64,000 nt of DNA from Candidatus Omnitrophota bacterium (GTDB lineage Bacteria > Omnitrophota > Gorgyraeia > Zapsychrales > JBAZNR01), in assembly GCA_041649175.1 (NCBI GenBank), contig JBAZNR010000001.1, positions 719,497 through 783,496 of the forward strand. The letters are read 5' to 3'. Below, piece by piece: positions 1 through 14,278 of this stretch (the stretch's first letter is position 1; every line of letters begins with the position of its first letter). The notes beneath the pieces were generated by a model. The model saw only the letters and a list, made by a program, of their open reading frames with translations, was not told where the DNA came from and did no database searches. The position numbers and the translations under genes are program-made.

Positions 1-1659
1 ACTCAGAATATTGCAGAAAATACTATTTCTGGAATGTTTCATCTCCGTTCAGTTCCTGCCAGTCCGATCCAAGAGATAACCAGCGGTCAAGTGAATATCA
101 AAATTGTAACGCCCGCGGCTTATCCGCAATATGAAAGCCCTCAGGCTTTCTTTGTAGACGAGCCGTTGTGGATATTTCCACATGTGCGGATGGATGACGG
201 GAAAATATGTCCTCCAGATAGTCGTAGATGGTTTGAGAATCCGACTTTAAGAGGATTTTTGGAATATCTAAGCGAATTTTTAACAAAGGCCGCTGAGAAT
301 AATTTAGAAGCAAAAGAAGATTATTATGAATTGCCGCAGTTCCCGGTTGCTAAGCCATTTCATTTGGTTTTTGTTGAGAGAGATCCGCAAAGTTGGATTT
401 CTCGGACAGAATCTGTGATCGGTTTCTTCTCTTATGCTGTTGAGAACCAGTTAATTCAAATACGTAGGTTTAACATTGACCCAAAGGCCTTAAATTCTGA
501 TGAGAGATGCGGGATATATATTTGGTATAAGAAAGAGCCCGTGCTTAGATATAAAAGGCCGCCAATTTATTTTCGAGAACTGGCCGAGCTTTTGGAAAGC
601 GAAGGGTTATCCTTCGAAAATTTGGTTAGGGAGGGGATAAAACTATTACCAGAGAAGAAATTCATTGTTATCTTGGGGTTCCCGATTAAGGAAACCAATG
701 GTGGCCCGTTTAATGATATACACTGGCAATCTTTTTTGTTAGATATCTCTGCTTACTATCAAATTTCGAGAAAGCAGAGGAAGAAAAATAAGAAAAAGAA
801 GGTCGATTATAACCTTGCAGTGAGTGATTATAGAAAAGAAGTTGAGAATACAAAGGTCGAATATTTTAAATCACACGATTGTTCCCTTAGGTTTTTATAC
901 AGTAGAATTGGAGGGCAGTCCTCGGTAAATAATTGTGCTGTTTTTGGTTGCGGTGCAATTGGCAGTCATCTTTTAGTATTTTTGGCTAAATCTGGTATCG
1001 CAAGAATGATCGTATGTGATCATGAAACAATCGAAGCTGGCAATTTATGCAGGCATGCCTTACATTTCAGCAGTGTTGGAAAACTTAAGGCATCTGAAAT
1101 GGGCAAGGTGTTAAAAGATATTAATCCGTGGGGAGATTTCTCGGTTGCCTTGACAGATATTCTTAATCTGACATCAGATTCAAAAGAAATGCAACAGCTT
1201 TTGGAGTATGACCTGTGGATTGATGCCGGATTGCCGGTAAAAGCATCCCTGTATTTGGTGGATCTTGCCAAAAAACATTCGAAACGGATGGTTTCGGCTT
1301 TTATTACAAATAAAGCAAAATATTTAATTATTGCGATATCGGGAAAGAATTCTTCACCTGATATTAATGAAATATTGACGCAGATGCGGATTTATATGAG
1401 CAATAGCGATGATAGCGATCTCAAAGGGTGTCTTGCTTTGCTCGAATCCCCTGAAAAAGATATAGGAATTAGGCCGAATACAGGATGTTATTTTATGACA
1501 TTTGAGGCTTCGGAAGCAAGAATGTCCGCGACAACATCCATATTGTATTCTTGTTTAAATGAGTTGTGTGGGGATACTTTTGAGAAGGGTCGGTATTTAA
1601 TCTATGGTTATGATGATAAGCATTTTACTTATAAGATAATTTTGGATTCCGTAGTATGA
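1..1659 (+). CDS. E2-E1 fusion protein (UBC-like N-terminal domain + ThiF/MoeB-type E1 domain); Cap2-like; 5' end outside window (frame open to nt 1)
   Basis: N-terminal region has the UBC-like motif YPQYESPQAFF...FPHVRMDDGKICPPD with a putative catalytic Cys. A K-rich linker follows. C-terminal half carries the Rossmann/E1 signature VFGCGAIGSHLLVFLAKSGIARMIVCDHETIEAGNLCRH. No stop codon lies between nt 1 and the first ATG at 34. Confidence 0.7.
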   Translation, partial: TQNIAENTISGMFHLRSVPASPIQEITSGQVNIKIVTPAAYPQYESPQAFFVDEPLWIFPHVRMDDGKICPPDSRRWFENPTLRGFLEYLSEFLTKAAENNLEAKEDYYELPQFPVAKPFHLVFVERDPQSWISRTESVIGFFSYAVENQLIQIRRFNIDPKALNSDERCGIYIWYKKEPVLRYKRPPIYFRELAELLESEGLSFENLVREGIKLLPEKKFIVILGFPIKETNGGPFNDIHWQSFLLDISAYYQISRKQRKKNKKKKVDYNLAVSDYRKEVENTKVEYFKSHDCSLRFLYSRIGGQSSVNNCAVFGCGAIGSHLLVFLAKSGIARMIVCDHETIEAGNLCRHALHFSSVGKLKASEMGKVLKDINPWGDFSVALTDILNLTSDSKEMQQLLEYDLWIDAGLPVKASLYLVDLAKKHSKRMVSAFITNKAKYLIIAISGKNSSPDINEILTQMRIYMSNSDDSDLKGCLALLESPEKDIGIRPNTGCYFMTFEASEARMSATTSILYSCLNELCGDTFEKGRYLIYGYDDKHFTYKIILDSVV

Positions 1660-2162
1660 AAAATTGGATTGATCATAAATATGATTTATCGGTGATTATG
1701 CCGGATTCGATTTGGCAGAAGATGGCACGCTTATGTGAAGAATCTTATCCAAATGAATGCGGTGGGATATTGATTGGTGAGTATTCCGATGATTTGAAGA
1801 AGGCTAAGGTTAAAGATATCATGATCTCAAAGGGTAATTCTGGGAAAAGAATGAGTTTCTTGAGAGAGGCGAAAGAGGCGAATAGTTTTTTGAAGAAACT
1901 GTGGCGTATAGCATCAGGCACTAAGTATTTTATCGGTGAATGGCATTCACACCCTAATGGTGCCGGATATCCTAGCATTACTGATGATGCCGCTATGTTT
2001 CAGGTTGCAAAAAGAGATCAATGCGCTTGTAAGCGACCTGTGTTGATAATATTAAACGGTGGGCCTAAAGTTTGGAAATCGGAAAAATGTTGGGTATATC
2101 TTATGGAAGATGAAAGGATTGAATTAATTGCGATTACAGAAGGCATTTCAGGAATAGTTTGA
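1656..2162 (+). CDS. JAB/JAMM (MPN+) metallopeptidase, Cap3-like
   Basis: Perfect JAMM motif EWHSHPNGAGYPSITD (H-x-H-x7-S-x2-D) with an upstream Glu (NECGG). The start overlaps the preceding stop (ATGA), indicating translational coupling. Confidence 0.8.
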   Translation: MKNWIDHKYDLSVIMPDSIWQKMARLCEESYPNECGGILIGEYSDDLKKAKVKDIMISKGNSGKRMSFLREAKEANSFLKKLWRIASGTKYFIGEWHSHPNGAGYPSITDDAAMFQVAKRDQCACKRPVLIILNGGPKVWKSEKCWVYLMEDERIELIAITEGISGIV

Positions 2163-2178
2163 TTATGAGATCCGAGAT

Positions 2179-2607
2179 ATGGTTCTCGACACAATCATGG
2201 ATAATCCGCATGGTTCGGGAAGTTCGGAAATAAAACGAAATTTTTTGCTTATGATCCACGAAGTATTCAAGCCAAAACAATTATTCCGCGGCGGGCCAGA
2301 AAGTGCAATGCTCAAAGGCCTAACCGCTCTAGATGTCTTGAAATATGAGCAAGAGGAATTAGGCAATAAAGATGTTGTACCTGAACCCGGGATTGATTTG
2401 ACAAAGATAAAATCTGAAAATTTGGCATGGTTAACCGAGACGGAAGATCAGGCTAGAGAATATGGGGAGGCTTCTAAATCGGATTTAAAAGATTATCGGG
2501 TTATCGCTCGTGATTCTGAGGGCGGAGTATTGGTTGAGAAATTGAATGCGGAGAATAAGCCCGTTATTCTCCGCAAGATGAAAGCGGGTAGGGTAAGGTT
2601 TTCATAA
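2179..2607 (+). CDS. hypothetical 142-aa protein, co-operonic with E2-E1/JAB (16-nt gap); C-terminus ...VILRKMKAG-RVRFS
   Basis: ORF with ATG at 2179, no recognisable domain. Its last 60 nt contain a copy of the operator palindrome. Confidence 0.5.
   Translation: MVLDTIMDNPHGSGSSEIKRNFLLMIHEVFKPKQLFRGGPESAMLKGLTALDVLKYEQEELGNKDVVPEPGIDLTKIKSENLAWLTETEDQAREYGEASKSDLKDYRVIARDSEGGVLVEKLNAENKPVILRKMKAGRVRFS
2546..2576. promoter_or_regulatory. palindromic operator O1 (ATGCGGAGAATA-N7-TATTCTCCGCAA), inside 3' end of the 142-aa ORF
   Basis: 12-nt arms that are reverse complements (11/12) with a 7-nt spacer. Same architecture as O2/O3 upstream of fic. Confidence 0.5.
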
Positions 2608-2660
2608 ATAGATTTAAGTCTTAGTGAATAAACAACTTGTATAAAATAATCTGGTTAGTC

Positions 2661-2691
2661 TTGTCACAAAAATGCACGCTTTTTGTGACAA
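2661..2691. promoter_or_regulatory. 12-bp perfect inverted repeat TTGTCACAAAAA-N7-TTTTTGTGACAA (hairpin or distinct operator)
   Basis: Arms are exact reverse complements. Not followed by a U-run, so not a classic terminator. Confidence 0.4.
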
Positions 2692-2719
2692 TATCATCTG
2701 GAAATTTATAAATTGAGAC

Positions 2720-2748
2720 TTGTGTATGCGGAGAATATGTGTTATATT
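2720..2748 (+). promoter_or_regulatory. putative sigma70 promoter of fic (TTGTGT-17-TATATT)
   Basis: -35-like TTGTGT 2720-2725, 17-nt spacer, -10-like TATATT 2743-2748, about 60 nt upstream of the ATG at 2809. Overlapped by operator repeats. Confidence 0.4.
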
Positions 2749-2791
2749 CTACGCATAGTATGCGGAGATTAAGGCGTCTATTCTCCGCATA
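2725..2791. promoter_or_regulatory. two tandem 13-7-13 palindromic operators O2 (2725-2757) and O3 (2759-2791), core TATGCGGAGAATA / TATTCTCCGCATA
   Basis: Four copies of a 13-mer in alternating orientation, each pair separated by exactly 7 nt. They overlap the spacer, the -10 and the 5' UTR of fic. Confidence 0.6.
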
Positions 2792-2808
2792 GCATAAAGG
2801 AAAATTAA

Positions 2809-3954
2809 ATGAAATATATCCACCAATTAGATAACTGGCCAGCTTTCATATGGGATCATAAAGAGATTGCATCCATACTAGGGACTGTGCGCAATCGACA
2901 GGGACGTTTGATCGGCCGTATGGAAGCATTGGGTTTTTCTTTGCGTTCAGAGGCAATTTTACAGACACTTACTCTTGATGTTTTAAAAAGCAGTGAAATC
3001 GAAGGGGAGATCCTTGATCCTGCCAAAGTGCGATCATCCATTGCGCGAAGATTGGGCATGGATATTGGCGGACTTGTGCCTTCCGATCGTCATGTGGATG
3101 GTGTGGTGGAAATGATGCTCGATGCCACACAGAATTTTGATAAGCCCCTTACTCAAGATCGAATGTTTGGCTGGCATGCCAGTTTGTTCCCGACCGGACG
3201 TAGCGGAATGCATAAAATTACTGTTGGCGCTTGGCGCGACGATAGCCATGGCCCCATGAGAGTTGTATCCGGTCCTGTTGGCCGTGAGAAGGTGCATTAT
3301 GAAGCGCCGGAAGCCAGTCGTCTCAAAAGTGAAATGAAGGATTTTTTGAGCTGGTTTAATGGTTCGGCTTCGCTCACCACAGGTGGAACGAAGGATTTAG
3401 ATCCTGTGCTCAAAGCAGGTATTGCACATTTGTGGTTCGTGACGCTTCATCCCTTTGATGATGGCAATGGGCGTATCGCCCGGGCGATTGCTGATATGCA
3501 GCTGGCGCGTGCCGACGGTAGTCGGGAACGTTTTTACAGCATGTCGAATCAGATTCGTCATGAAAGAAATGAATATTATGATGTCCTTGAAAAGACACAG
3601 AAAAGTATCCATATCACAAAAGAGGGGATTGATATCACGGCGTGGCTGGTGTGGTTTCTGAACTGTTTGAGTCGGGCGCTGGATACAACTGAAAGTACAT
3701 TGTCCGGTGTGTTCAAGAAAGCCCGTTTTTGGGATTCTCTTCCTGTCGAATCCATTAACGAACGGCAGAAAATGATCATCAACAAGTTGTTTGACGGCTT
3801 TGAAGGTAAACTCACCACTTCAAAATGGGCGAAGATCACAAAGTGTTCGCAGGACACCGCTCATCGGGACATTCTTGATCTTGTTGAGAGAGGTATTCTC
3901 GTTAAGGATCCCGCTGGTGGACGCAGTACGAGCTATTCGTTGAAAGAGGCGTGA
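2809..3954 (+). CDS. Fic/DOC family protein (AMPylase-type) with N-terminal inhibitory-helix motif and C-terminal winged-helix domain
   Basis: Fic motif HPFDDGNGRIARA. N-terminal SSEIEG fits the (S/T)xxxE(G/N) inhibitory motif. About 80 C-terminal residues are typical of the wHTH found in this Fic subfamily. Confidence 0.85.
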   Translation: MKYIHQLDNWPAFIWDHKEIASILGTVRNRQGRLIGRMEALGFSLRSEAILQTLTLDVLKSSEIEGEILDPAKVRSSIARRLGMDIGGLVPSDRHVDGVVEMMLDATQNFDKPLTQDRMFGWHASLFPTGRSGMHKITVGAWRDDSHGPMRVVSGPVGREKVHYEAPEASRLKSEMKDFLSWFNGSASLTTGGTKDLDPVLKAGIAHLWFVTLHPFDDGNGRIARAIADMQLARADGSRERFYSMSNQIRHERNEYYDVLEKTQKSIHITKEGIDITAWLVWFLNCLSRALDTTESTLSGVFKKARFWDSLPVESINERQKMIINKLFDGFEGKLTTSKWAKITKCSQDTAHRDILDLVERGILVKDPAGGRSTSYSLKEA

Positions 3955-4110
3955 TCAATTCAGGATTGGCCCGTGCTAACACTGTGCTAACAAAATAGCC
4001 CGCACCTAGGGCAATCAGGCAGAAACACCATCAAGGCACAAATCGCGCAACTGATAACACCCCTAACAGTTATCAAAAACCAGCAAAAACCAGCAACAGC
4101 GTCGGAGCCT

Positions 4111-4155
4111 CTCATAACCTGAAGGTCTCGGGTTCAAATCCCGACCCCGCAACCA
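4111..4155 (+). other. 3' fragment of initiator tRNA-Met (anticodon loop CUCAUAA, AGGUC variable loop, T-arm, CCCCGCA-A-CCA); not a complete tRNA; putative att-site direct repeat
   Basis: T-arm TCGGG-TTCAAAT-CCCGA, acceptor 3' strand CCCCGCA with discriminator A and CCA, anticodon CAT. No complementary 5' acceptor strand or anticodon-stem 5' strand lies upstream, and homology breaks exactly at 4110/4111. Confidence 0.6.
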
Positions 4156-4167
4156 GTTTTCCTCATC

Positions 4168-4206
4168 AAAAAAACCTTTGCCTTCGGGCAAGGGTTTTTT
4201 GGTTTT
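4168..4206 (+). terminator. intrinsic (bidirectional) terminator: CCTTTGCC-TTCG-GGCAAGGG flanked by A7 and T6
   Basis: 8-bp GC-rich stem with a UUCG tetraloop, followed by TTTTTTGGTTTT. It sits immediately after the tRNA 3' end copy. Confidence 0.6.
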
Positions 4207-4224
4207 AAGAGGAAACTGGTTGCG

Positions 4225-4251
4225 CCCCTGTCCTTGGAAAAGGACAAGGGG
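4225..4251 (+). other. second stem-loop (10 bp with 1-nt bulge)
   Basis: CCCCTGTCCT...AGGACAAGGGG. No adjacent U-run, so function unclear. Confidence 0.3.
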
Positions 4252-4302
4252 CAAGGTACATTATCCCTCACCGCTTTTTTGATTTTATGTTAAAATAAAA
4301 AA

Positions 4303-4746
4303 ATGAAAATGGATCACTTCATAGAAGAAGCAATAAAAGAAGCGCAGATCGGTTTATCCGAAGGTGGTATTCCGATCGGAGCTGTGCTTGTCCATCAGGA
4401 TAAGATCATTGGGCGGGGCCATAATCGCCGGATACAAAAAAATAGCGCTATTCTTCATGGCGAAACAGATGCCCTTGAGAATGCGGGCCGTCAGAAAGCA
4501 AGTATTTATCGAGACTGCGTTATGTACACAACTCTTTCTCCGTGCATTATGTGTTCGGGGACAATTCTTCTGTACGGTATCCGTCAAGTTGTTGTTGGGG
4601 AAAATAGGAATTTCCTTGGGGCTGAAGACTTATTGAGGCAAAACGGAGTTATGGTTGATGTTTTGCAAAATGATAGATGTATTAAGATGATGGAATCGTT
4701 CATCAAAGAAAAGCCGATGCTTTGGAATGAAGATATCGGTAAATAA
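4303..4746 (+). CDS. cytosine deaminase, yeast FCY1-type (CMP/dCMP deaminase zinc-binding fold)
   Basis: HGE...LENAGR and TLSPCIMCSGTILLYGI...VVGENRNF closely match the Fcy1 active-site regions (HxE, PCxxC). Confidence 0.8.
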   Translation: MKMDHFIEEAIKEAQIGLSEGGIPIGAVLVHQDKIIGRGHNRRIQKNSAILHGETDALENAGRQKASIYRDCVMYTTLSPCIMCSGTILLYGIRQVVVGENRNFLGAEDLLRQNGVMVDVLQNDRCIKMMESFIKEKPMLWNEDIGK

Positions 4747-4839
4747 GATAATCTGCAAGAATAAGTTTAAAAGCCAATATAGATCTTTTGATGATTGGGC
4801 TCAATTACAGCGTATGAGTTTTATCGGCTTTAGTCCAAT

Positions 4840-6474
4840 ATGAATTCTGGGTTGAAAATCCTTCTTGTCGTCGGCTATTTGTGCATTTTTGGTATTTTAC
4901 TTAATTATGAAAATGCCTGGATGCATAATGAAGTAGCTGTGACAACGCAAAAATTCTTCGACGGACATCCCTCTTTTCTTGAGCGCGTTTCTCAATGTTT
5001 GAATTGGCAGATCTTTGAAGGGGAATATGGCGGAGTTCCCAATAGCCGTGCGCGCATCTTCTCTAATATATTCCAGACATTCAATATTCTATTTAGAAAC
5101 TGGATCTTTCAATTTATCCCCGTACATCCAAGTCTTTCTTTAACATGGATTGTTGTTTTGGTCCTATGCCCGTATTTTCTATACAAATTTATCAAAAATA
5201 TTACCGACGATAAGGCGATCGCGCTGATCACGGCATTTCTTTATATCATCAGCCCCGGCGCGCTCATATCGGTCATCATGTTGTTTCTTCCGGGCAAAGC
5301 TATTACCAACTTTTTTTGTATCTTTTGCCTTTATCTTGGATCAGTGATCGCAAGAAATATAGAAAAAGCCTCCTGCACATCTTTCAGGCGAGATTTTCTT
5401 TTTCTTGTCCTGATGATCATCGCTTCCTTATTCTTTGATGAATATTCACTGTTTATTTTTGTTCTCGTCCCTATTTTCTTCCCGGGGATTTTCCGGCAGC
5501 GCCAACAACGTGTTTTTACAACAATTTTATACTTACTGATCCCGGCTGTTTACTATTTTTCGCTCACGTTTTTCTTACCCCAACTTTATGCCTTCGCCGG
5601 TTATCCGGGATTTAATTTCTTTGCTTTTTCTGATCATATGGGGATCAGCCAGCGTCTGCCAAACATCGATGTATGGGCGATGATCGTTAACTTTATTCTT
5701 CTTTTGCATGATAATCTCTTGGCAGGTTTTAACGCGTATCTTAAGGATCCTTCTGTCAGTGTTCGCGTAACGCAGTTTTATTCTACGGCGAATGAGTTAA
5801 TTCATGGCGATAATATTCAACTGGGCTGGGATTTTATCAAAGATAAACACATCACTTTCTTTCAAATTCTTCACGGCATTTTTTCTTTTGCAATTCTTGC
5901 TGTCGGGGCGTGGGCCTTAGCGGGGAAATGGCGTGATAATCAAAATAAGAAATTACGGACATATTTCTTAAAATCCTTAATGGCTTTGGTTGGGTTTGTG
6001 ATATTTTTTAGCCTGCTTCATATGACGAGTAATATTTTAGCCGGCTGCGGATATTATGGGTCGTGTTTCAGCGTATTTTTTGCGATCACCGTTGGGTTGG
6101 GCTTAAAGTTTATGATGGATAAAACACCGTGGAAAAATGTCCTTATTTGCATTTTTCTGGCCAGCCTAATGGTCAATTCGTTTTATAATATCCGGATGCT
6201 GAATTATTCCTGGATAGCGCTGCATTACCGCCAGCGTTATTGGGAGCTATCGATGTGGCTTAATCAGTATCCGCTCCGGGAAATTTACGAAAAGCATTTT
6301 GTAAAGGCAAATTCTTCCAACTTAGAATATCCTTATAATTTAAAGAATAATTTTAAGATTACCTATGAGGCGTGGAGAAATCGGAAGGATCCCGGTATTT
6401 GCAAAATGATCATTTCCGCCGCGCCGCCGGAATTAAGAGGTTTTTTATTAGCCGAACTGCCCTATATTAAATAG
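4840..6474 (+). CDS. polytopic integral membrane protein, GT-C-like (putative glycosyltransferase)
   Basis: More than 10 predicted hydrophobic helices, no soluble domain. Resembles YfhO/ArnT-type membrane proteins. Confidence 0.55.
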   Translation: MNSGLKILLVVGYLCIFGILLNYENAWMHNEVAVTTQKFFDGHPSFLERVSQCLNWQIFEGEYGGVPNSRARIFSNIFQTFNILFRNWIFQFIPVHPSLSLTWIVVLVLCPYFLYKFIKNITDDKAIALITAFLYIISPGALISVIMLFLPGKAITNFFCIFCLYLGSVIARNIEKASCTSFRRDFLFLVLMIIASLFFDEYSLFIFVLVPIFFPGIFRQRQQRVFTTILYLLIPAVYYFSLTFFLPQLYAFAGYPGFNFFAFSDHMGISQRLPNIDVWAMIVNFILLLHDNLLAGFNAYLKDPSVSVRVTQFYSTANELIHGDNIQLGWDFIKDKHITFFQILHGIFSFAILAVGAWALAGKWRDNQNKKLRTYFLKSLMALVGFVIFFSLLHMTSNILAGCGYYGSCFSVFFAITVGLGLKFMMDKTPWKNVLICIFLASLMVNSFYNIRMLNYSWIALHYRQRYWELSMWLNQYPLREIYEKHFVKANSSNLEYPYNLKNNFKITYEAWRNRKDPGICKMIISAAPPELRGFLLAELPYIK

Positions 6475-6743
6475 TTTAAATACCAAAGGTTTTATTTTCT
6501 TTCTGTGACCGGAAAAACTAGATTCAGCGCATATTCATCATCATCTTTTTTACTCTATGTTAAAATGCGAATGGGATGAAGGGTAAAAAGATACGTGTCC
6601 CCGGAAAATATAACTTTTAATTAACAATTTAATCCGGCGCTTGACAGGCCTGGCAATTTGAATGGATGCTGACGTATTATTTACCGATATATTTTTTAAA
6701 TAAAAAAAGTAATTAAAACATTTAGAAAGGGATTGAGATAATT

Positions 6744-7274
6744 ATGAGGAAATTGCTAGTGTTGCTATTTTTATTGTTTATATTTGGTTGTGCTCAACCA
6801 CTGCCTCGTTTAAAGACTGTGGATCACGTTGATATCAAGCGCTATATGGGGCCTTGGTATGTTATTGCGTGTATCCCGACTTTTATTGAAACAAAAGCCT
6901 ATAATGCAATTGAAGAGTATCAAATCAACGCTGATGGCACCATCAACACGATTTTTACATTTCACCAAGGTGGATTTGATGGACCGCTTAAGAAATACAA
7001 TCCCCGTGGATTCATTGTTGATAAAGTCAACAACTCAACCTGGGGCATGCAGTTTGTCTGGCCGTTTAAAGCTGAGTTTCTGATAACATATCTAACGCCG
7101 GATTATAGCCAGACCGTGATCGGGCGCAATAAGCGCGATTATGTTTGGATCCAGGCGCGAGCGCCTCAAATTCCGGAACAAGATTATCAGCGCTTACTGA
7201 GCATTCTAAAAGAGCAAGGATATGATATTACCAAAATTCGCAAAGTACCTCAACGCTGGGGCGATAAGGAATGA
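6744..7274 (+). CDS. blc: bacterial lipocalin Blc (outer-membrane lipoprotein)
   Basis: Lipobox LFIFGC, lipocalin motif YMGPWYVIA, length 176 aa. Confidence 0.8.
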   Translation: MRKLLVLLFLLFIFGCAQPLPRLKTVDHVDIKRYMGPWYVIACIPTFIETKAYNAIEEYQINADGTINTIFTFHQGGFDGPLKKYNPRGFIVDKVNNSTWGMQFVWPFKAEFLITYLTPDYSQTVIGRNKRDYVWIQARAPQIPEQDYQRLLSILKEQGYDITKIRKVPQRWGDKE

Positions 7275-7349
7275 AAAGGATTTTAAACTCCGGGGATATG
7301 TTCTAATTTTTTTTCTCTACATCTAAAGTGCTAAAGCTGTTCCGATTTG

Positions 7350-10153: not shown

Positions 10154-11115
10154 TCGATCAAACATCAGCGCTTTTTACGATGATTTTAGGCGGGTCGGTT
10201 ATTTTAGGCTTCGTGGCGATTTCCGCGATGTTTTTGGTTTGGTGGGAAAGAAAAGTTTCAGCCGTTATTCAAAACCGTTTGGGGCCGATGGTGGTTGGCT
10301 GGCACGGGTCGCTTCAAACTGCCGCCGATATGCTCAAACTTTTGTTAAAAGAGAATATTGTTCCGTCGGGAGTTGACAAATTTTCCTGGTGGCTGGCGCC
10401 GTTTTTTGTGACGGTTCCGCCCATTATGGCTTTGGTCACGGTTCCGTTTAGCGATGTGCTGATCGCGCGCGATCTTAACGTCGGAGTTTTATTCTTAACA
10501 TCCGTGACTTCTGTTTGCGTTTTAGGAATTTTCATGGCCGGATGGGGCTCAAATAATAAATATTCGCTTTTAGGCGGCATGCGTTCGGCGGCGCAAATTA
10601 TCAGCTATGAAGTTCCACTGCTTCTTTCAATTGTGGTGGTGGTGATGGAAACCGGAACGCTTTCCATGCAGGAAATCGTCCGCGCTCAAGAACATTCCTG
10701 GCTTATTTTAAAACCTAATATGGCCATCGCTGCCCTGATCTATTTTATTTCTTCCACGGCGGAAGTGAACCGTGTGCCTTTCGATATTCCGGAAGCGGAA
10801 TCGGAATTGGGAGCAGGGTATCACACCGAATATACAGGAATGAAATTCGCCATGTTCTTCTTGGCGGAATACACCAATCTTTTTATTATCTCGGCGGTGT
10901 TGGCTGTTCTATTTTTAGGCGGCTGGCAAGGCCCGGTATTGCCGCCTTTGGCATGGTTTCTCATCAAAACATACGGCATTATTTTTGTTTCGATGTGGGT
11001 TCGATGGACTTTACCGCGAGTGCGGATGGACCAAATGATGGCGTTTGCCTGGAAATTCTTAACGCCGATCGCATTAGCGAATATTGTGGTGAGCGGTTGG
11101 CTCATGTTAAAGTAA
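10150..11115 (+). CDS. nuoH: NADH-quinone oxidoreductase subunit H
   Basis: ND1 family. Overlaps nuoD by 4 nt, and nuoEFG are absent between D and H. Confidence 0.9.
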   Translation: MIDQTSALFTMILGGSVILGFVAISAMFLVWWERKVSAVIQNRLGPMVVGWHGSLQTAADMLKLLLKENIVPSGVDKFSWWLAPFFVTVPPIMALVTVPFSDVLIARDLNVGVLFLTSVTSVCVLGIFMAGWGSNNKYSLLGGMRSAAQIISYEVPLLLSIVVVVMETGTLSMQEIVRAQEHSWLILKPNMAIAALIYFISSTAEVNRVPFDIPEAESELGAGYHTEYTGMKFAMFFLAEYTNLFIISAVLAVLFLGGWQGPVLPPLAWFLIKTYGIIFVSMWVRWTLPRVRMDQMMAFAWKFLTPIALANIVVSGWLMLK

Positions 11116-11136
11116 GCGATGAAGGGATAGATAGTT

Positions 11137-11610
11137 ATGTTTTTGCGTCTTAAATTTTTTGTTTTAAGTTTTGTCAGCATCTTGATCGGGCTTAAAGTTA
11201 CGATGCGTAATATTTTTGCTCCGGCGGTGACTTTGCAGTATCCGAAAGAAAAAAGGCCGATGGCGGAAAATTTCCGCGGCATGGTTGACCTTATTCCGGA
11301 AGATTGCGTTGTTTGTTATATGTGTATTAAGATCTGCCCGGTGGCCGCGCTTGATCTTACGCACAAACAAAGCTTAACGGCGGATAATAAAAAGAAATTG
11401 GATATTACCAAATTTACGTTTAACGGAGAACTTTGCTGTTTTTGCGGGCTGTGCGAAGAGATTTGCCCGACGGACGCGATCTATTTAAATAAGATGTATG
11501 AGGTTTCTGTTTTCTCACATGATGATGTTAATAATATTGACTTGATGAACGCGGAAAAATATAAGCATCTAGACAAGTACGATCTTACTAAATATACAAA
11601 GAAGGGTTAA
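11137..11610 (+). CDS. nuoI: NADH-quinone oxidoreductase subunit I
   Basis: Two CxxCxxCxxxCP 4Fe-4S motifs, and a TLQYP motif. Confidence 0.85.
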   Translation: MFLRLKFFVLSFVSILIGLKVTMRNIFAPAVTLQYPKEKRPMAENFRGMVDLIPEDCVVCYMCIKICPVAALDLTHKQSLTADNKKKLDITKFTFNGELCCFCGLCEEICPTDAIYLNKMYEVSVFSHDDVNNIDLMNAEKYKHLDKYDLTKYTKKG

Positions 11611-11618
11611 TTAAGCCT

Positions 11619-12107
11619 GTGGCTGATTTTATTTTTTATTTTATTGCGCTTTGCGGCTGTGTTTCCGCTTTTATGACGGTGACCGCGCGGGATATTTTCC
11701 ATAGCGCCGTTTGGCTGGCGCTGACACTTTTGAGTGTCAGTGGATTTTATTTTTATATCGGAGCCGAATTCTTAGGCGCTGTTCAAATTTTGGTCTATGT
11801 CGGTGGGATTGTGACTTTATTTATCTACGCCATTAAATTAACGGCGGATATCGGCGATAAAACGATCAAGCAGACCAATGAACAAAAGGGAATTTCTTTT
11901 TTTATCAGCGCTTTGATTTTCGCGGTCCTTGTTTTCAGCATTATGAAAACACCGTTTTTAAACATTGCGCTGTCAGTCGTTGTGAGCACCGCGCAAATCG
12001 GACGAGTACTTTTAACGGATTATGTTTTAGCTTTTGAAATACTATCTTTTGTTTTGTTGATCGCTTTGATGGGCGCGATCATTATAGCCAGAAAAGAAGT
12101 TAAATAA
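11619..12107 (+). CDS. nuoJ: NADH-quinone oxidoreductase subunit J
   Basis: ND6 family membrane protein, GTG start. Confidence 0.8.
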   Translation: MADFIFYFIALCGCVSAFMTVTARDIFHSAVWLALTLLSVSGFYFYIGAEFLGAVQILVYVGGIVTLFIYAIKLTADIGDKTIKQTNEQKGISFFISALIFAVLVFSIMKTPFLNIALSVVVSTAQIGRVLLTDYVLAFEILSFVLLIALMGAIIIARKEVK

Positions 12108-12116
12108 CAAATACTT

Positions 12117-12437
12117 ATGGTCCATATTAAAGAAATTTTAATTTTTTCCAGCATCTTGTTCGTCATCGGTATTTATGGCGCCTTAACACGGCGAAATACG
12201 TTCGGTATTTTGATGTCTATTGAACTTATCTTAAATAGCTGTTGTTTGAATTTTGTGGCGTTTATGCGCTATCATCAGTCGCCTTATTTTGCGTCTCCTT
12301 TATCGGGAGAAGTTTTTGTCCTTTTTATTATCGCCATCGCGGCGGCGGAAGTGGCGGTGGGTTTGGCGCTTCTTTTAGGTATTTATCGTCATTGTAAAAG
12401 CATTGCCAGTGATCATATCAATCTGATGAAAGGGTAA
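12117..12437 (+). CDS. nuoK: NADH-quinone oxidoreductase subunit K
   Basis: ND4L family, about 100 aa. Confidence 0.85.
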   Translation: MVHIKEILIFSSILFVIGIYGALTRRNTFGILMSIELILNSCCLNFVAFMRYHQSPYFASPLSGEVFVLFIIAIAAAEVAVGLALLLGIYRHCKSIASDHINLMKG

Positions 12438-14278
12438 TGATGTTAGTTTTAGCAGGCTTAGTTTTATTATTTCCTCTTTTGGCATTTCTGCTGATCGCCT
12501 TAGTGACCAGAAAATCTCCCAGGATTTCTGCCGGTATTTCCATTCTGGCCATGCTCTTTTCTCTTATATCATCCATTATTATCTTTGGGCTGGTGGCGGC
12601 GGTTCCGGGGAATACGGAATACACATTTCCATGGATGAAGATATTAACTAATCTAAATATCGAAATAGGGATTTTGCTTAATCCAATCTCATCGGTGATG
12701 CTTTTGGTGGTATGCGCGGTGAGCTTTTTGGTTCAGGTTTACTCGGTCGGTTATATGAAAGGCGACAGCGGCTATTCGAAATATTATGCTTTCTTGTCTT
12801 TGTTTAGTTTTTCCATGCTGGGATTGGTCATCGCCAATAACTTTTTGCAGATGTATATTTTCTGGGAAATGGTGGGCTTGTCTTCGTATCTGTTGATCGG
12901 GCATTGGTATTTCAAGCCGGAAGCGGCCAACGCGGCTAAAAAGGCATTTGTGGTGACGCGTTTTGGAGATTTTGGATTTCTGATCGCCATTCTTATCCTT
13001 TCGGTGAAAACCGGAACGTTTAATTTTCTTACGCTCGAACGAATGCTGCCCACCGGTATCATTGATCCGATGACAATTACGGTGATCGCGCTTCTTTTAT
13101 TCGCGGGCGCGGCCGGTAAAAGCGCTCAATTTCCTCTCCACGTTTGGCTTCCCGATGCCATGGAAGGCCCCACGCCGGTTTCGGCTCTTATCCATGCGGC
13201 CACCATGGTGGCCGCCGGAGTATATTTGGTCGCGCGGGCGTATTTTCTTTTTTCTCTGTCGGCAACAGCCCTTTTTGTTATTGCGATCATCGGTTGTTTT
13301 ACCGCATTTTTAGCGGGAAGCATTGCTTTAGTTCAAGACGATATCAAAAAGGTTTTAGCCTATTCAACCGTCAGCCAGCTTGGCTATATGATGTTGGGGC
13401 TTGGCGTCGGTGGATTTACAGCCGGATTTTTCCATTTGATCACCCATGCGTCGTTTAAAGCGCTTTTGTTCTTAGGGGCGGGCAGCGTTATTCACGCGGT
13501 TGGAACCAACAATATTTGGGAAATGGGCGGACTTTATAAAAAGATGAAAGTAACGACGCTGACATTTTTAGCGGGTGGCTTAGCGCTTTGCGGAATATTT
13601 CCGACCAGCGGTTATTTCAGCAAAGACGCTATTTTATTGGAGACGTTTCATAGCGGGCATTACATCCTTTTTTCCGTGGCACTTTTAACCGCCGGATTTA
13701 CGGCCTTTTATATGGCGCGGCTATTTTTTGTCGTATTTTTCTCAACCGAAAAATCTCACGGAAAACATCCTCACGAATCACCGTGGGTGATGTGCGTTCC
13801 TCTTATTGTTCTCGCGGCATTTGCCTTAGGGTTAGGATACGCGGCTGAACATTTTAGGCATTTTGTTTTCTTTGGTAGTGTTGCGGCCGAAGAAGGGCAC
13901 GATATGATTATTCCGGTTGTCTCTAATATCGTGGCTATTGGCGCTATTATTTTTGCTTGGGCCATCTATCAAAAACAAATGATCTCAGCACAAGCTTTAG
14001 CTCAAAGGTTTTCCGGAATTTACAGAATCCTAAAAAATAAATATTATGTGGATGAATTTTATACGTTTTGTGTCGATCGGATCCTTTTTGTCATTTCGGA
14101 TATGGCTCACTGGTTTGACCGACATATTGTCGACGGAGCGGTGAATGGTTTCTCGCACATCATCCAATTGTCGGCCGGTTCGCTAAGGCGGATCCAAACC
14201 GGTTTTGTGCAGAATTATGCTTTAGGGATATTCGGCGGCGTTGTTGCTTTGTGTTTACTCATGTCGATAGGAAAATAA
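12437..14278 (+). CDS. nuoL: NADH-quinone oxidoreductase subunit L
   Basis: ND5 antiporter-like subunit, 613 aa. Confidence 0.9.
   Translation: MMLVLAGLVLLFPLLAFLLIALVTRKSPRISAGISILAMLFSLISSIIIFGLVAAVPGNTEYTFPWMKILTNLNIEIGILLNPISSVMLLVVCAVSFLVQVYSVGYMKGDSGYSKYYAFLSLFSFSMLGLVIANNFLQMYIFWEMVGLSSYLLIGHWYFKPEAANAAKKAFVVTRFGDFGFLIAILILSVKTGTFNFLTLERMLPTGIIDPMTITVIALLLFAGAAGKSAQFPLHVWLPDAMEGPTPVSALIHAATMVAAGVYLVARAYFLFSLSATALFVIAIIGCFTAFLAGSIALVQDDIKKVLAYSTVSQLGYMMLGLGVGGFTAGFFHLITHASFKALLFLGAGSVIHAVGTNNIWEMGGLYKKMKVTTLTFLAGGLALCGIFPTSGYFSKDAILLETFHSGHYILFSVALLTAGFTAFYMARLFFVVFFSTEKSHGKHPHESPWVMCVPLIVLAAFALGLGYAAEHFRHFVFFGSVAAEEGHDMIIPVVSNIVAIGAIIFAWAIYQKQMISAQALAQRFSGIYRILKNKYYVDEFYTFCVDRILFVISDMAHWFDRHIVDGAVNGFSHIIQLSAGSLRRIQTGFVQNYALGIFGGVVALCLLMSIGK

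Follow-up and report, generated by a model that had tools for sequence, protein, structure and literature searches.

A displaced 3' fragment of an initiator tRNA-Met gene as the probable right boundary of a defence island in Omnitrophota

The stretch of DNA analysed here (64 kb in its entirety, referred to below as the window) was found to possess a displaced 3' fragment of an initiator tRNA-Met gene. The 45 nt concerned are a real copy of this gene, truncated at the 5' side. Taken as a whole, the reading that they represent the 3' end of a tRNA gene displaced by the integration of a genomic island, that they form its attR site and that the island lies to their left with a cargo of defence genes is considered probable. 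Read in this manner, the fragment would fix to the base (4110/4111 to 4152/4155) where a defence island ends on its right, in a phylum that is uncultivated and has small genomes. On this basis, the Cap2/Cap3-like and Fic genes beside it can be treated as horizontally acquired cargo and not as core genes, and searches for sister elements and their integrase can start from the sequence of the attP arm and core. No concept is changed by this observation, displaced tDNA fragments being a textbook signature of integrase-mediated islands, here met with in Omnitrophota, a poorly studied phylum. A literature search found no described tDNA islands for Omnitrophota. The features of the region are listed in Table 1.

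Table 1. Positions of the features in and around the tRNA gene fragment (numbering is that of the window)
Feature	Position	Strand	Sequence or supporting evidence
Cap2-like E1-E2 (ThiF) gene, cut by the window start; cargo	1-1659	+	Pfam ThiF; PADLOC E1-E2, E=7e-43
Cap3-like JAB deubiquitinase-type protease gene; cargo	1656-2162	+	Pfam Prok-JAB; PADLOC JAB, E=6e-40
142-aa ORF between JAB and Fic; island side	2179-2607	+	Gene call also in Logan contig L002
DUF4172-Fic gene (SoFic-like), last before the att arm	2809-3954	+	Pfam DUF4172 and Fic; PADLOC SoFic, E=2e-41; MFA5059538.1
Conserved 145-nt non-coding arm, element side; proposed P arm of attP	3966-4110	+	Gap-free homology to L086 and L087
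Most conserved arm motif; candidate arm-type protein-binding site	3971-3992	+	CCGTGCTAACACTGTGCTAACA; two GTGCTAACA units 11 nt apart
Displaced 3' fragment of initiator tRNA-Met gene (tRNA positions 32-76)	4111-4155	+	CTCATAACCTGAAGGTCTCGGGTTCAAATCCCGACCCCGCAACCA
Shared att core, within the fragment	4111-4152		
Encoded CCA, within the fragment	4153-4155		
Long hairpin with perfect 12-bp outer stem	4148-4224		CGCAACCAGTTT/AAACTGGTTGCG; encloses the terminator-like hairpin at 4169-4200
Terminator-like hairpin right after the tRNA end	4169-4200		Inverted repeat AAAAAACCTTTGCC/GGCAAGGGTTTTTT; T-run after the stem
Cytidine/deoxycytidylate-type deaminase gene, first host-side gene	4303-4746	+	Pfam dCMP_cyt_deam_1

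The 45-nt sequence occurs only once in the window, even when up to three mismatches are permitted, with 0 matches expected by chance. A scan of metagenomes (JGI contigs) with its first 42 nt gave four loci (L086, L087, L088, and L089), of which L088 and L089 contain full-length tRNA-Met(CAT) genes bearing the identical 3' part. On alignment, the fragment was identical to both genes from C32 to A73 (42/42 in each case), and in comparison with L089, which encodes its CCA, identity extended through the CCA to all 45 positions (45/45). Identity begins with the anticodon loop, of which C32 is the first base, and is preceded in the window by a T (4110) where the intact genes have G31. When the full-length tRNA-fMet of L089 was compared with the window by BLASTN, the sole match was between query positions 33-77 and window positions 4111-4155, and the 5' half of tRNA-fMet was absent anywhere in the 64 kb. 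No second or degenerate copy of the fragment was found elsewhere in the window. The original prediction, made from the letters of the window, of a 45-nt copy of the 3' part of tRNA-fMet without a 5' half is thereby borne out, and the end of homology which it had placed at 4110/4111 proved correct and falls at the junction of stem and loop.

A check proposed with that prediction was whether a complete tRNA is called at this position. A complete, non-canonical tRNA was ruled out by three negative results: ARAGORN identified 0 tRNA genes over the 64-kb window, Rfam at gathering thresholds gave no match in the window, and Rfam at a relaxed threshold (E<=10) gave only weak, unrelated matches in 3900-4320, none of them tRNA-like. 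The partial copy therefore stands. Its initiator character is marked in the fragment itself by the CAU anticodon and by A72/A73, and in the intact L088 and L089 genes by a C1 x A72 mismatch (CGCGGGG...CCCCGCA) and by A11:U24. At the base of the anticodon stem these two genes have two of the three canonical G:C pairs, the third being replaced by A29:U41. The loss of one of the three G:C pairs in the anticodon stem of initiator tRNA is a deviation known in some lineages. The fragment itself is situated in a 348-nt intergenic gap, between the end of the Fic gene at 3954 and the start of the deaminase gene at 4303, and overlaps no coding domain.

It has been described that a tyrosine integrase recombines a target tRNA gene with an attP site (~250 bp with core and arms) in which part of that gene is included; the gene is thereby regenerated at one end of the island and a displaced fragment of it marks the other end, a 3' fragment being located downstream of the island in the same orientation (PMC4383910). 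Such 3' fragments are present in 3760 of 3919 catalogued islands, and 2083 (approximately half) use anticodon-centered "A" sites (PMC4383910). The window resembles the "A" attP class of Islander tDNA islands (PMC4383910) in that it has a 42-45-nt piece of the tRNA 3' end beginning at the anticodon loop, in that this piece lies outside a full-length tRNA and overlaps no coding domain, and in having foreign cargo on the 5' side and host DNA on the 3' side. The Islander rule places the cognate full-length tDNA on the same replicon, in the same orientation and upstream of the 3' fragment, and the Islander filters require this tDNA together with a tyrosine integrase (PF00589) between it and the fragment, whereas the window has no tRNA gene and would start inside the island.

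According to this scheme, a chromosomal initiator tRNA-Met gene would have supplied the fragment, which would be its original 3' end and run from the anticodon loop to the CCA. A genomic island would have integrated into the gene by site-specific recombination, presumably catalyzed by a tyrosine integrase and with its crossover probably in or near the anticodon loop. The attP site of the island would carry its own copy of tRNA positions 32-73, and upon integration the tRNA gene would be made functional again on the left, at an attL site beyond the window, and its native 3' part, together with CCA and terminator, would be pushed to the right end and would constitute attR at the position of the fragment. 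On this scheme, both attL and the integrase would still exist today. The fragment is assigned to attR because it starts at the anticodon loop, extends to the end of the gene, retains a CCA and a terminator of native origin and is preceded by element DNA.

Comparison with the two remaining loci of the metagenome scan bears directly on this reading. L086 and L087 each have the fragment with an identical 5' boundary, no 5' half and no tRNA call, and in both it is preceded by a homolog of the 145-nt arm of the window, at 13011-13155 in L086 and at 712-856 in L087. Over these 145 nt, without a gap, the arm of the window shares 60-61% identity with those of L086 and L087, which share 87% identity with each other; in a control of 20,000 in-register shuffles the mean identity was 27% and never exceeded 42%. 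The genes before the arm differ, with DUF4172-Fic in the window, another Fic in L087 (only 30% identity to that of the window over the catalytic core), and DUF6941 and a DUF4143 ATPase in L086, which assigns the arm to the site and not to a gene. The right flanks of the three loci are unrelated, each with its own terminator hairpin. A conserved left arm, an identical core and an unrelated right flank are together what an attR site (P arm, core, B') should show, and the comparison supports this assignment for the three loci, as it does the view that related elements would have entered the same gene in different hosts. As for an unoccupied site, L088 may represent one, albeit from another locus and another organism, its intact tRNA having enolase on one side, an MFS transporter on the other and no foreign genes around it.

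The same comparison weighs against a 5'-truncated pseudogene left by an unrelated event, such as a transposon or illegitimate insertion into the anticodon loop or a deletion of the 5' half, with no att duplication and no site-specific recombinase involved. A single copy is visible in the window, as would be the case for a pseudogene, and a second copy indicated by the assembly graph (see below) could be a separate tRNA-fMet gene. However, a recurrent breakpoint at C32 in three loci with different right flanks, accompanied each time by the homologous arm, requires a shared site-specific process, and for a small genome the cost of an initiator tRNA gene that stays split would be high. A pseudogene of this kind is thus considered very unlikely, and the original view of the fragment as an att-type remnant is supported, over that of a random pseudogene, by the shared boundary and the gap-free arm in L086 and L087.

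The arm is A/C-rich and has direct TAACA-type repeats at arm positions 12, 23, 90, 99, and 106, with units of this type at matching positions in all three loci. Its most conserved block is at the outer end (three-locus consensus CCGTGCTAnCACTGTGyTArCA), and the corresponding motif of the window is unique there and precedes the fragment in L086 and L087 too. In lambda-type attP sites, P and P' arms that bear arm-type Int/Xis sites lie on either side of the core. Similarities to lambda attP are found in the non-coding arm of fixed length which abuts the core, in the two GTGCTAACA units at 11-nt spacing together with the TAACA units, and in the conservation of arm motifs in register between elements with different cargo. 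The window differs from lambda in that its arm motifs are only candidate binding sites and that a P' arm is perhaps represented only by a second copy of the motif in L086. The 145-nt P arm with its TAACA-type motifs would probably bind the recombinase or accessory proteins. Within the arm of the window there is also a perfect tandem repeat (two copies of CAAAAACCAG at 4074-4093), which is absent from the L086 and L087 arms of equal total length.

The second motif copy of L086 (CCGTGCCAGCACTGTGCTAGCA, at 12860-12908 on the minus strand) is located ~100 nt after the L086 fragment, which is without a CCA, and beyond it are an Xre-type gene, a 255-aa ORF and AbiEi/AbiEii (10200-12850). This copy may be the P' arm of a degenerate neighboring island, that is, of a tandem array; a search for a recombinase or a second fragment that would accompany such a tandem island in L086 found neither. 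The 13 kb to the right of the L086 fragment encode Xre and AbiEi/AbiEii followed by polysaccharide genes, with no recombinase among them, and on the left both L086 and L087 end before any integrase.

The constancy of the arm was also considered in terms of a functional RNA, in which the arm and the tRNA 3' part (~190 nt, with T-arm, acceptor 3' strand, CCA and terminator at its end) would be transcribed as a tRNA-like ncRNA that cooperates with the neighboring defence or toxin genes; one conceivable function would be to serve a Fic-type or nucleotidyl-transferase enzyme as decoy or sensor. The fixed 145-nt length and conserved blocks of the arm across loci, the terminator which always follows the fragment and the presence of Fic-type genes directly upstream in two of the three loci would all agree with this. 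However, no conserved secondary structure was detected (the RNAalifold covariation term is unfavorable, with many broken pairs), the z-score of single-sequence folding is only -2.1, no promoter-like site is present on the plus strand in 3900-4350, there is no Rfam match, and the upstream genes are non-homologous across loci. The 100% conservation of the tRNA part, moreover, follows solely from its identity to the host gene. A transcribed RNA of this description is regarded as barely credible. A broader proposal, that the loci represent either a tRNA-like RNA module serving in regulation or target mimicry with Fic/nucleotidyltransferase-type defence genes, or an Omnitrophota-wide family of defence islands at initiator tRNA genes, is judged highly improbable; in its second form, the family could be a previously undescribed one of small islands whose recombinase is possibly not beside the site.

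Returning to integration into the tRNA gene, a second copy of the core was indicated in the same population by two Logan contigs of an independent assembly (k=31, run SRR8542065), which encode exactly the Fic (L002) and the deaminase (L001) of the window. Contig L002 covers window positions 1919-4140, its last 30-mer starting at 4111, and L001 starts at 4123, its first 30-mer ending at 4152. Given the nature of a de Bruijn graph, the breaks at 4111 and 4152 mean that another sequence in the sample shares exactly 4111-4152. In this second copy the preceding base is not T and the following base is not C, hence there is no encoded CCA. These properties fit an attL tRNA with an island-derived 3' part, which is supportive but not decisive, as the copy could equally be an unrelated paralogous tRNA-fMet gene or belong to another organism in the sample.

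Four genes are found on the element side, in 1-4110, and Pfam analysis detected no recombinase among them. The full Cap2-like protein has 568 aa (MFA5059535.1), the gene starting ~47 nt before base 1 of the window, and the E1-E2 sequence of the window is a 100% match to P0121 (568 aa, Cap2_linker and ThiF domains). The 142-aa ORF has no Pfam or PADLOC match. At 0.387, the G+C content of 1-2000 is below that of 99% of the 2-kb windows on the right. Tetranucleotide frequencies in 1-4000 show a correlation of 0.836 with those of the remaining window, whereas no 4-kb window on the right falls under 0.878. Close to Cap2 relatives, genes of mobile elements were observed: a rve transposase follows Cap2 in L093 (83% identity), and a T4SS conjugation cluster (VirB4/TraE/VirB9/VirB10/TraG) follows it in L094 (59% identity).

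It had been predicted that the island extends to the left of 4111, that the E1-E2, JAB and Fic genes are its cargo and that a comparison of composition between the left side and the rest would be informative. The left side is indeed an outlier in both G+C content and tetranucleotides. Together with the PADLOC defence models and the transposase and T4SS beside Cap2 relatives, this supports the assignment of the three genes as island cargo, made up of compositionally atypical genes of defence type. The direction also finds support, as the loci are conserved on the left only, in agreement with the 3'-fragment rule (PMC4383910).

With regard to known defence systems, the Fic of the window matches the PADLOC model for SoFic, and the Cap2-like (Cap2_linker and ThiF, PADLOC E1-E2) and Cap3-like JAB genes resemble those of type II CBASS. 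Type II CBASS consists of a CD-NTase cyclase and an effector with Cap2 and Cap3, whereas no CD-NTase was recognized before Cap2 in L093 and L094, the nearest relatives for which upstream DNA is available. In its place, both have PDC-M48A/PDC-M48B (MBL-fold) genes upstream of Cap2 (loci at 154-6118 in L093 and 554-5224 in L094), and the operon is accordingly not classified here as CBASS. This suggests that L093 and L094 carry a candidate defence system regulated by E1-E2/JAB and distinct from CBASS. By analogy with these relatives, MBL-fold genes of the PDC-M48 type probably lie beyond the window start, and the island would extend at least ~4 kb in that direction.

The DUF4172-Fic of the window has more than 100 homologs (P0141-P0259) at 73-92% identity, many of them named Omnitrophota and mostly on very short contigs. 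This is consistent with a gene that is widely spread, and possibly mobile or repeat-flanked, in Omnitrophota.

Whether the island is still a mobile one is a separate matter. The att site could be a fossil, in that the element integrated and then decayed, its integrase or attL being lost or rearranged, to leave an immobile defence patch with an orphan tDNA fragment. This overlaps in part with the explanation preferred here, differing only in the present state of the element, and is looked upon as possible, though unlikely. It would account for there being no recombinase near any of the three fragments in the available DNA, and Fic homologs also occur without arm or fragment (L098). A possible decayed fragment (CCTTTCATAACCTGAA...) was further noted in L095-L097, 115 nt after a Fic 87% identical to that of the window, and the L095 patch consists of AbiE/HEPN/Rtc genes with no integrase in 10 kb upstream. 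However, the fragment of the window is undecayed in relation to an intact gene, the arm motifs are kept in register across loci, and the available DNA is too short on the left to judge.

The sequence in question in L095 is at 11247-11290 (CCTTTCATAACCTGAACCTATCG..., also in L096 and L097), in an AbiE/HEPN-NTase/Rtc patch, and is perhaps a decayed tRNA-fMet fragment; the expected number of occurrences of its exact 12-mer in this locus is 0.02, and a wider local alignment scores only ~3.5 sd above shuffles.

Relatives of the element were also sought among phages and plasmids. A megablast search of phage and plasmid collections with 1-4320 gave no match, and a phage or plasmid origin of this segment was rejected when a search in distant mode matched its tRNA part only. 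Unannotated phage matches, on inspection, were found among structural or replication genes and not beside an integrase. In viral contigs the exact 42-mer was not found, a degenerate core pattern matched only intact tRNA genes in unrelated phages that were high in GC or had tRNA clusters, there was one match to the arm motif, which by our own estimate equals chance expectation, and no Fic relative was found. An exact-protein look-up returned no contig for E1-E2, JAB or P0121, and only short Logan contigs for Fic and the deaminase.

On the right side, the deaminase gene is followed by a 544-aa ORF, for which Pfam and PADLOC gave no match, then by a lipocalin and the nuoA-N operon, and further on by housekeeping genes (lipid A acyltransferase, RNase II, and others). 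The nearest relatives of the deaminase have no more than 77% identity and are scattered over many phyla; in the contig scan they showed no nearby tRNA and no synteny, and thus no empty site. Relatives of NuoD within Omnitrophota likewise yielded no syntenic empty site, the region upstream of nuo being different in each.

The genes for the deaminase, the 544-aa ORF and the lipocalin (4300-7300) have a G+C content of 0.37-0.40, as poor as that of the island side. It may represent foreign DNA of an earlier date, but a search of the window showed no second tDNA fragment.

The hairpin that immediately follows the tRNA end is proposed to be the native terminator of the tRNA gene and to belong to the host side. 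The outer stem of the longer hairpin around it takes in the last 8 nt of the tRNA fragment. A second hairpin is present at 4225-4252, and the double hairpin (4148-4252) is very stable, with an RNA MFE of -65.9 kcal/mol (z = -8.0); among the possibilities are that it serves as a bidirectional terminator, represents a small palindromic element or was left as a scar of recombination.
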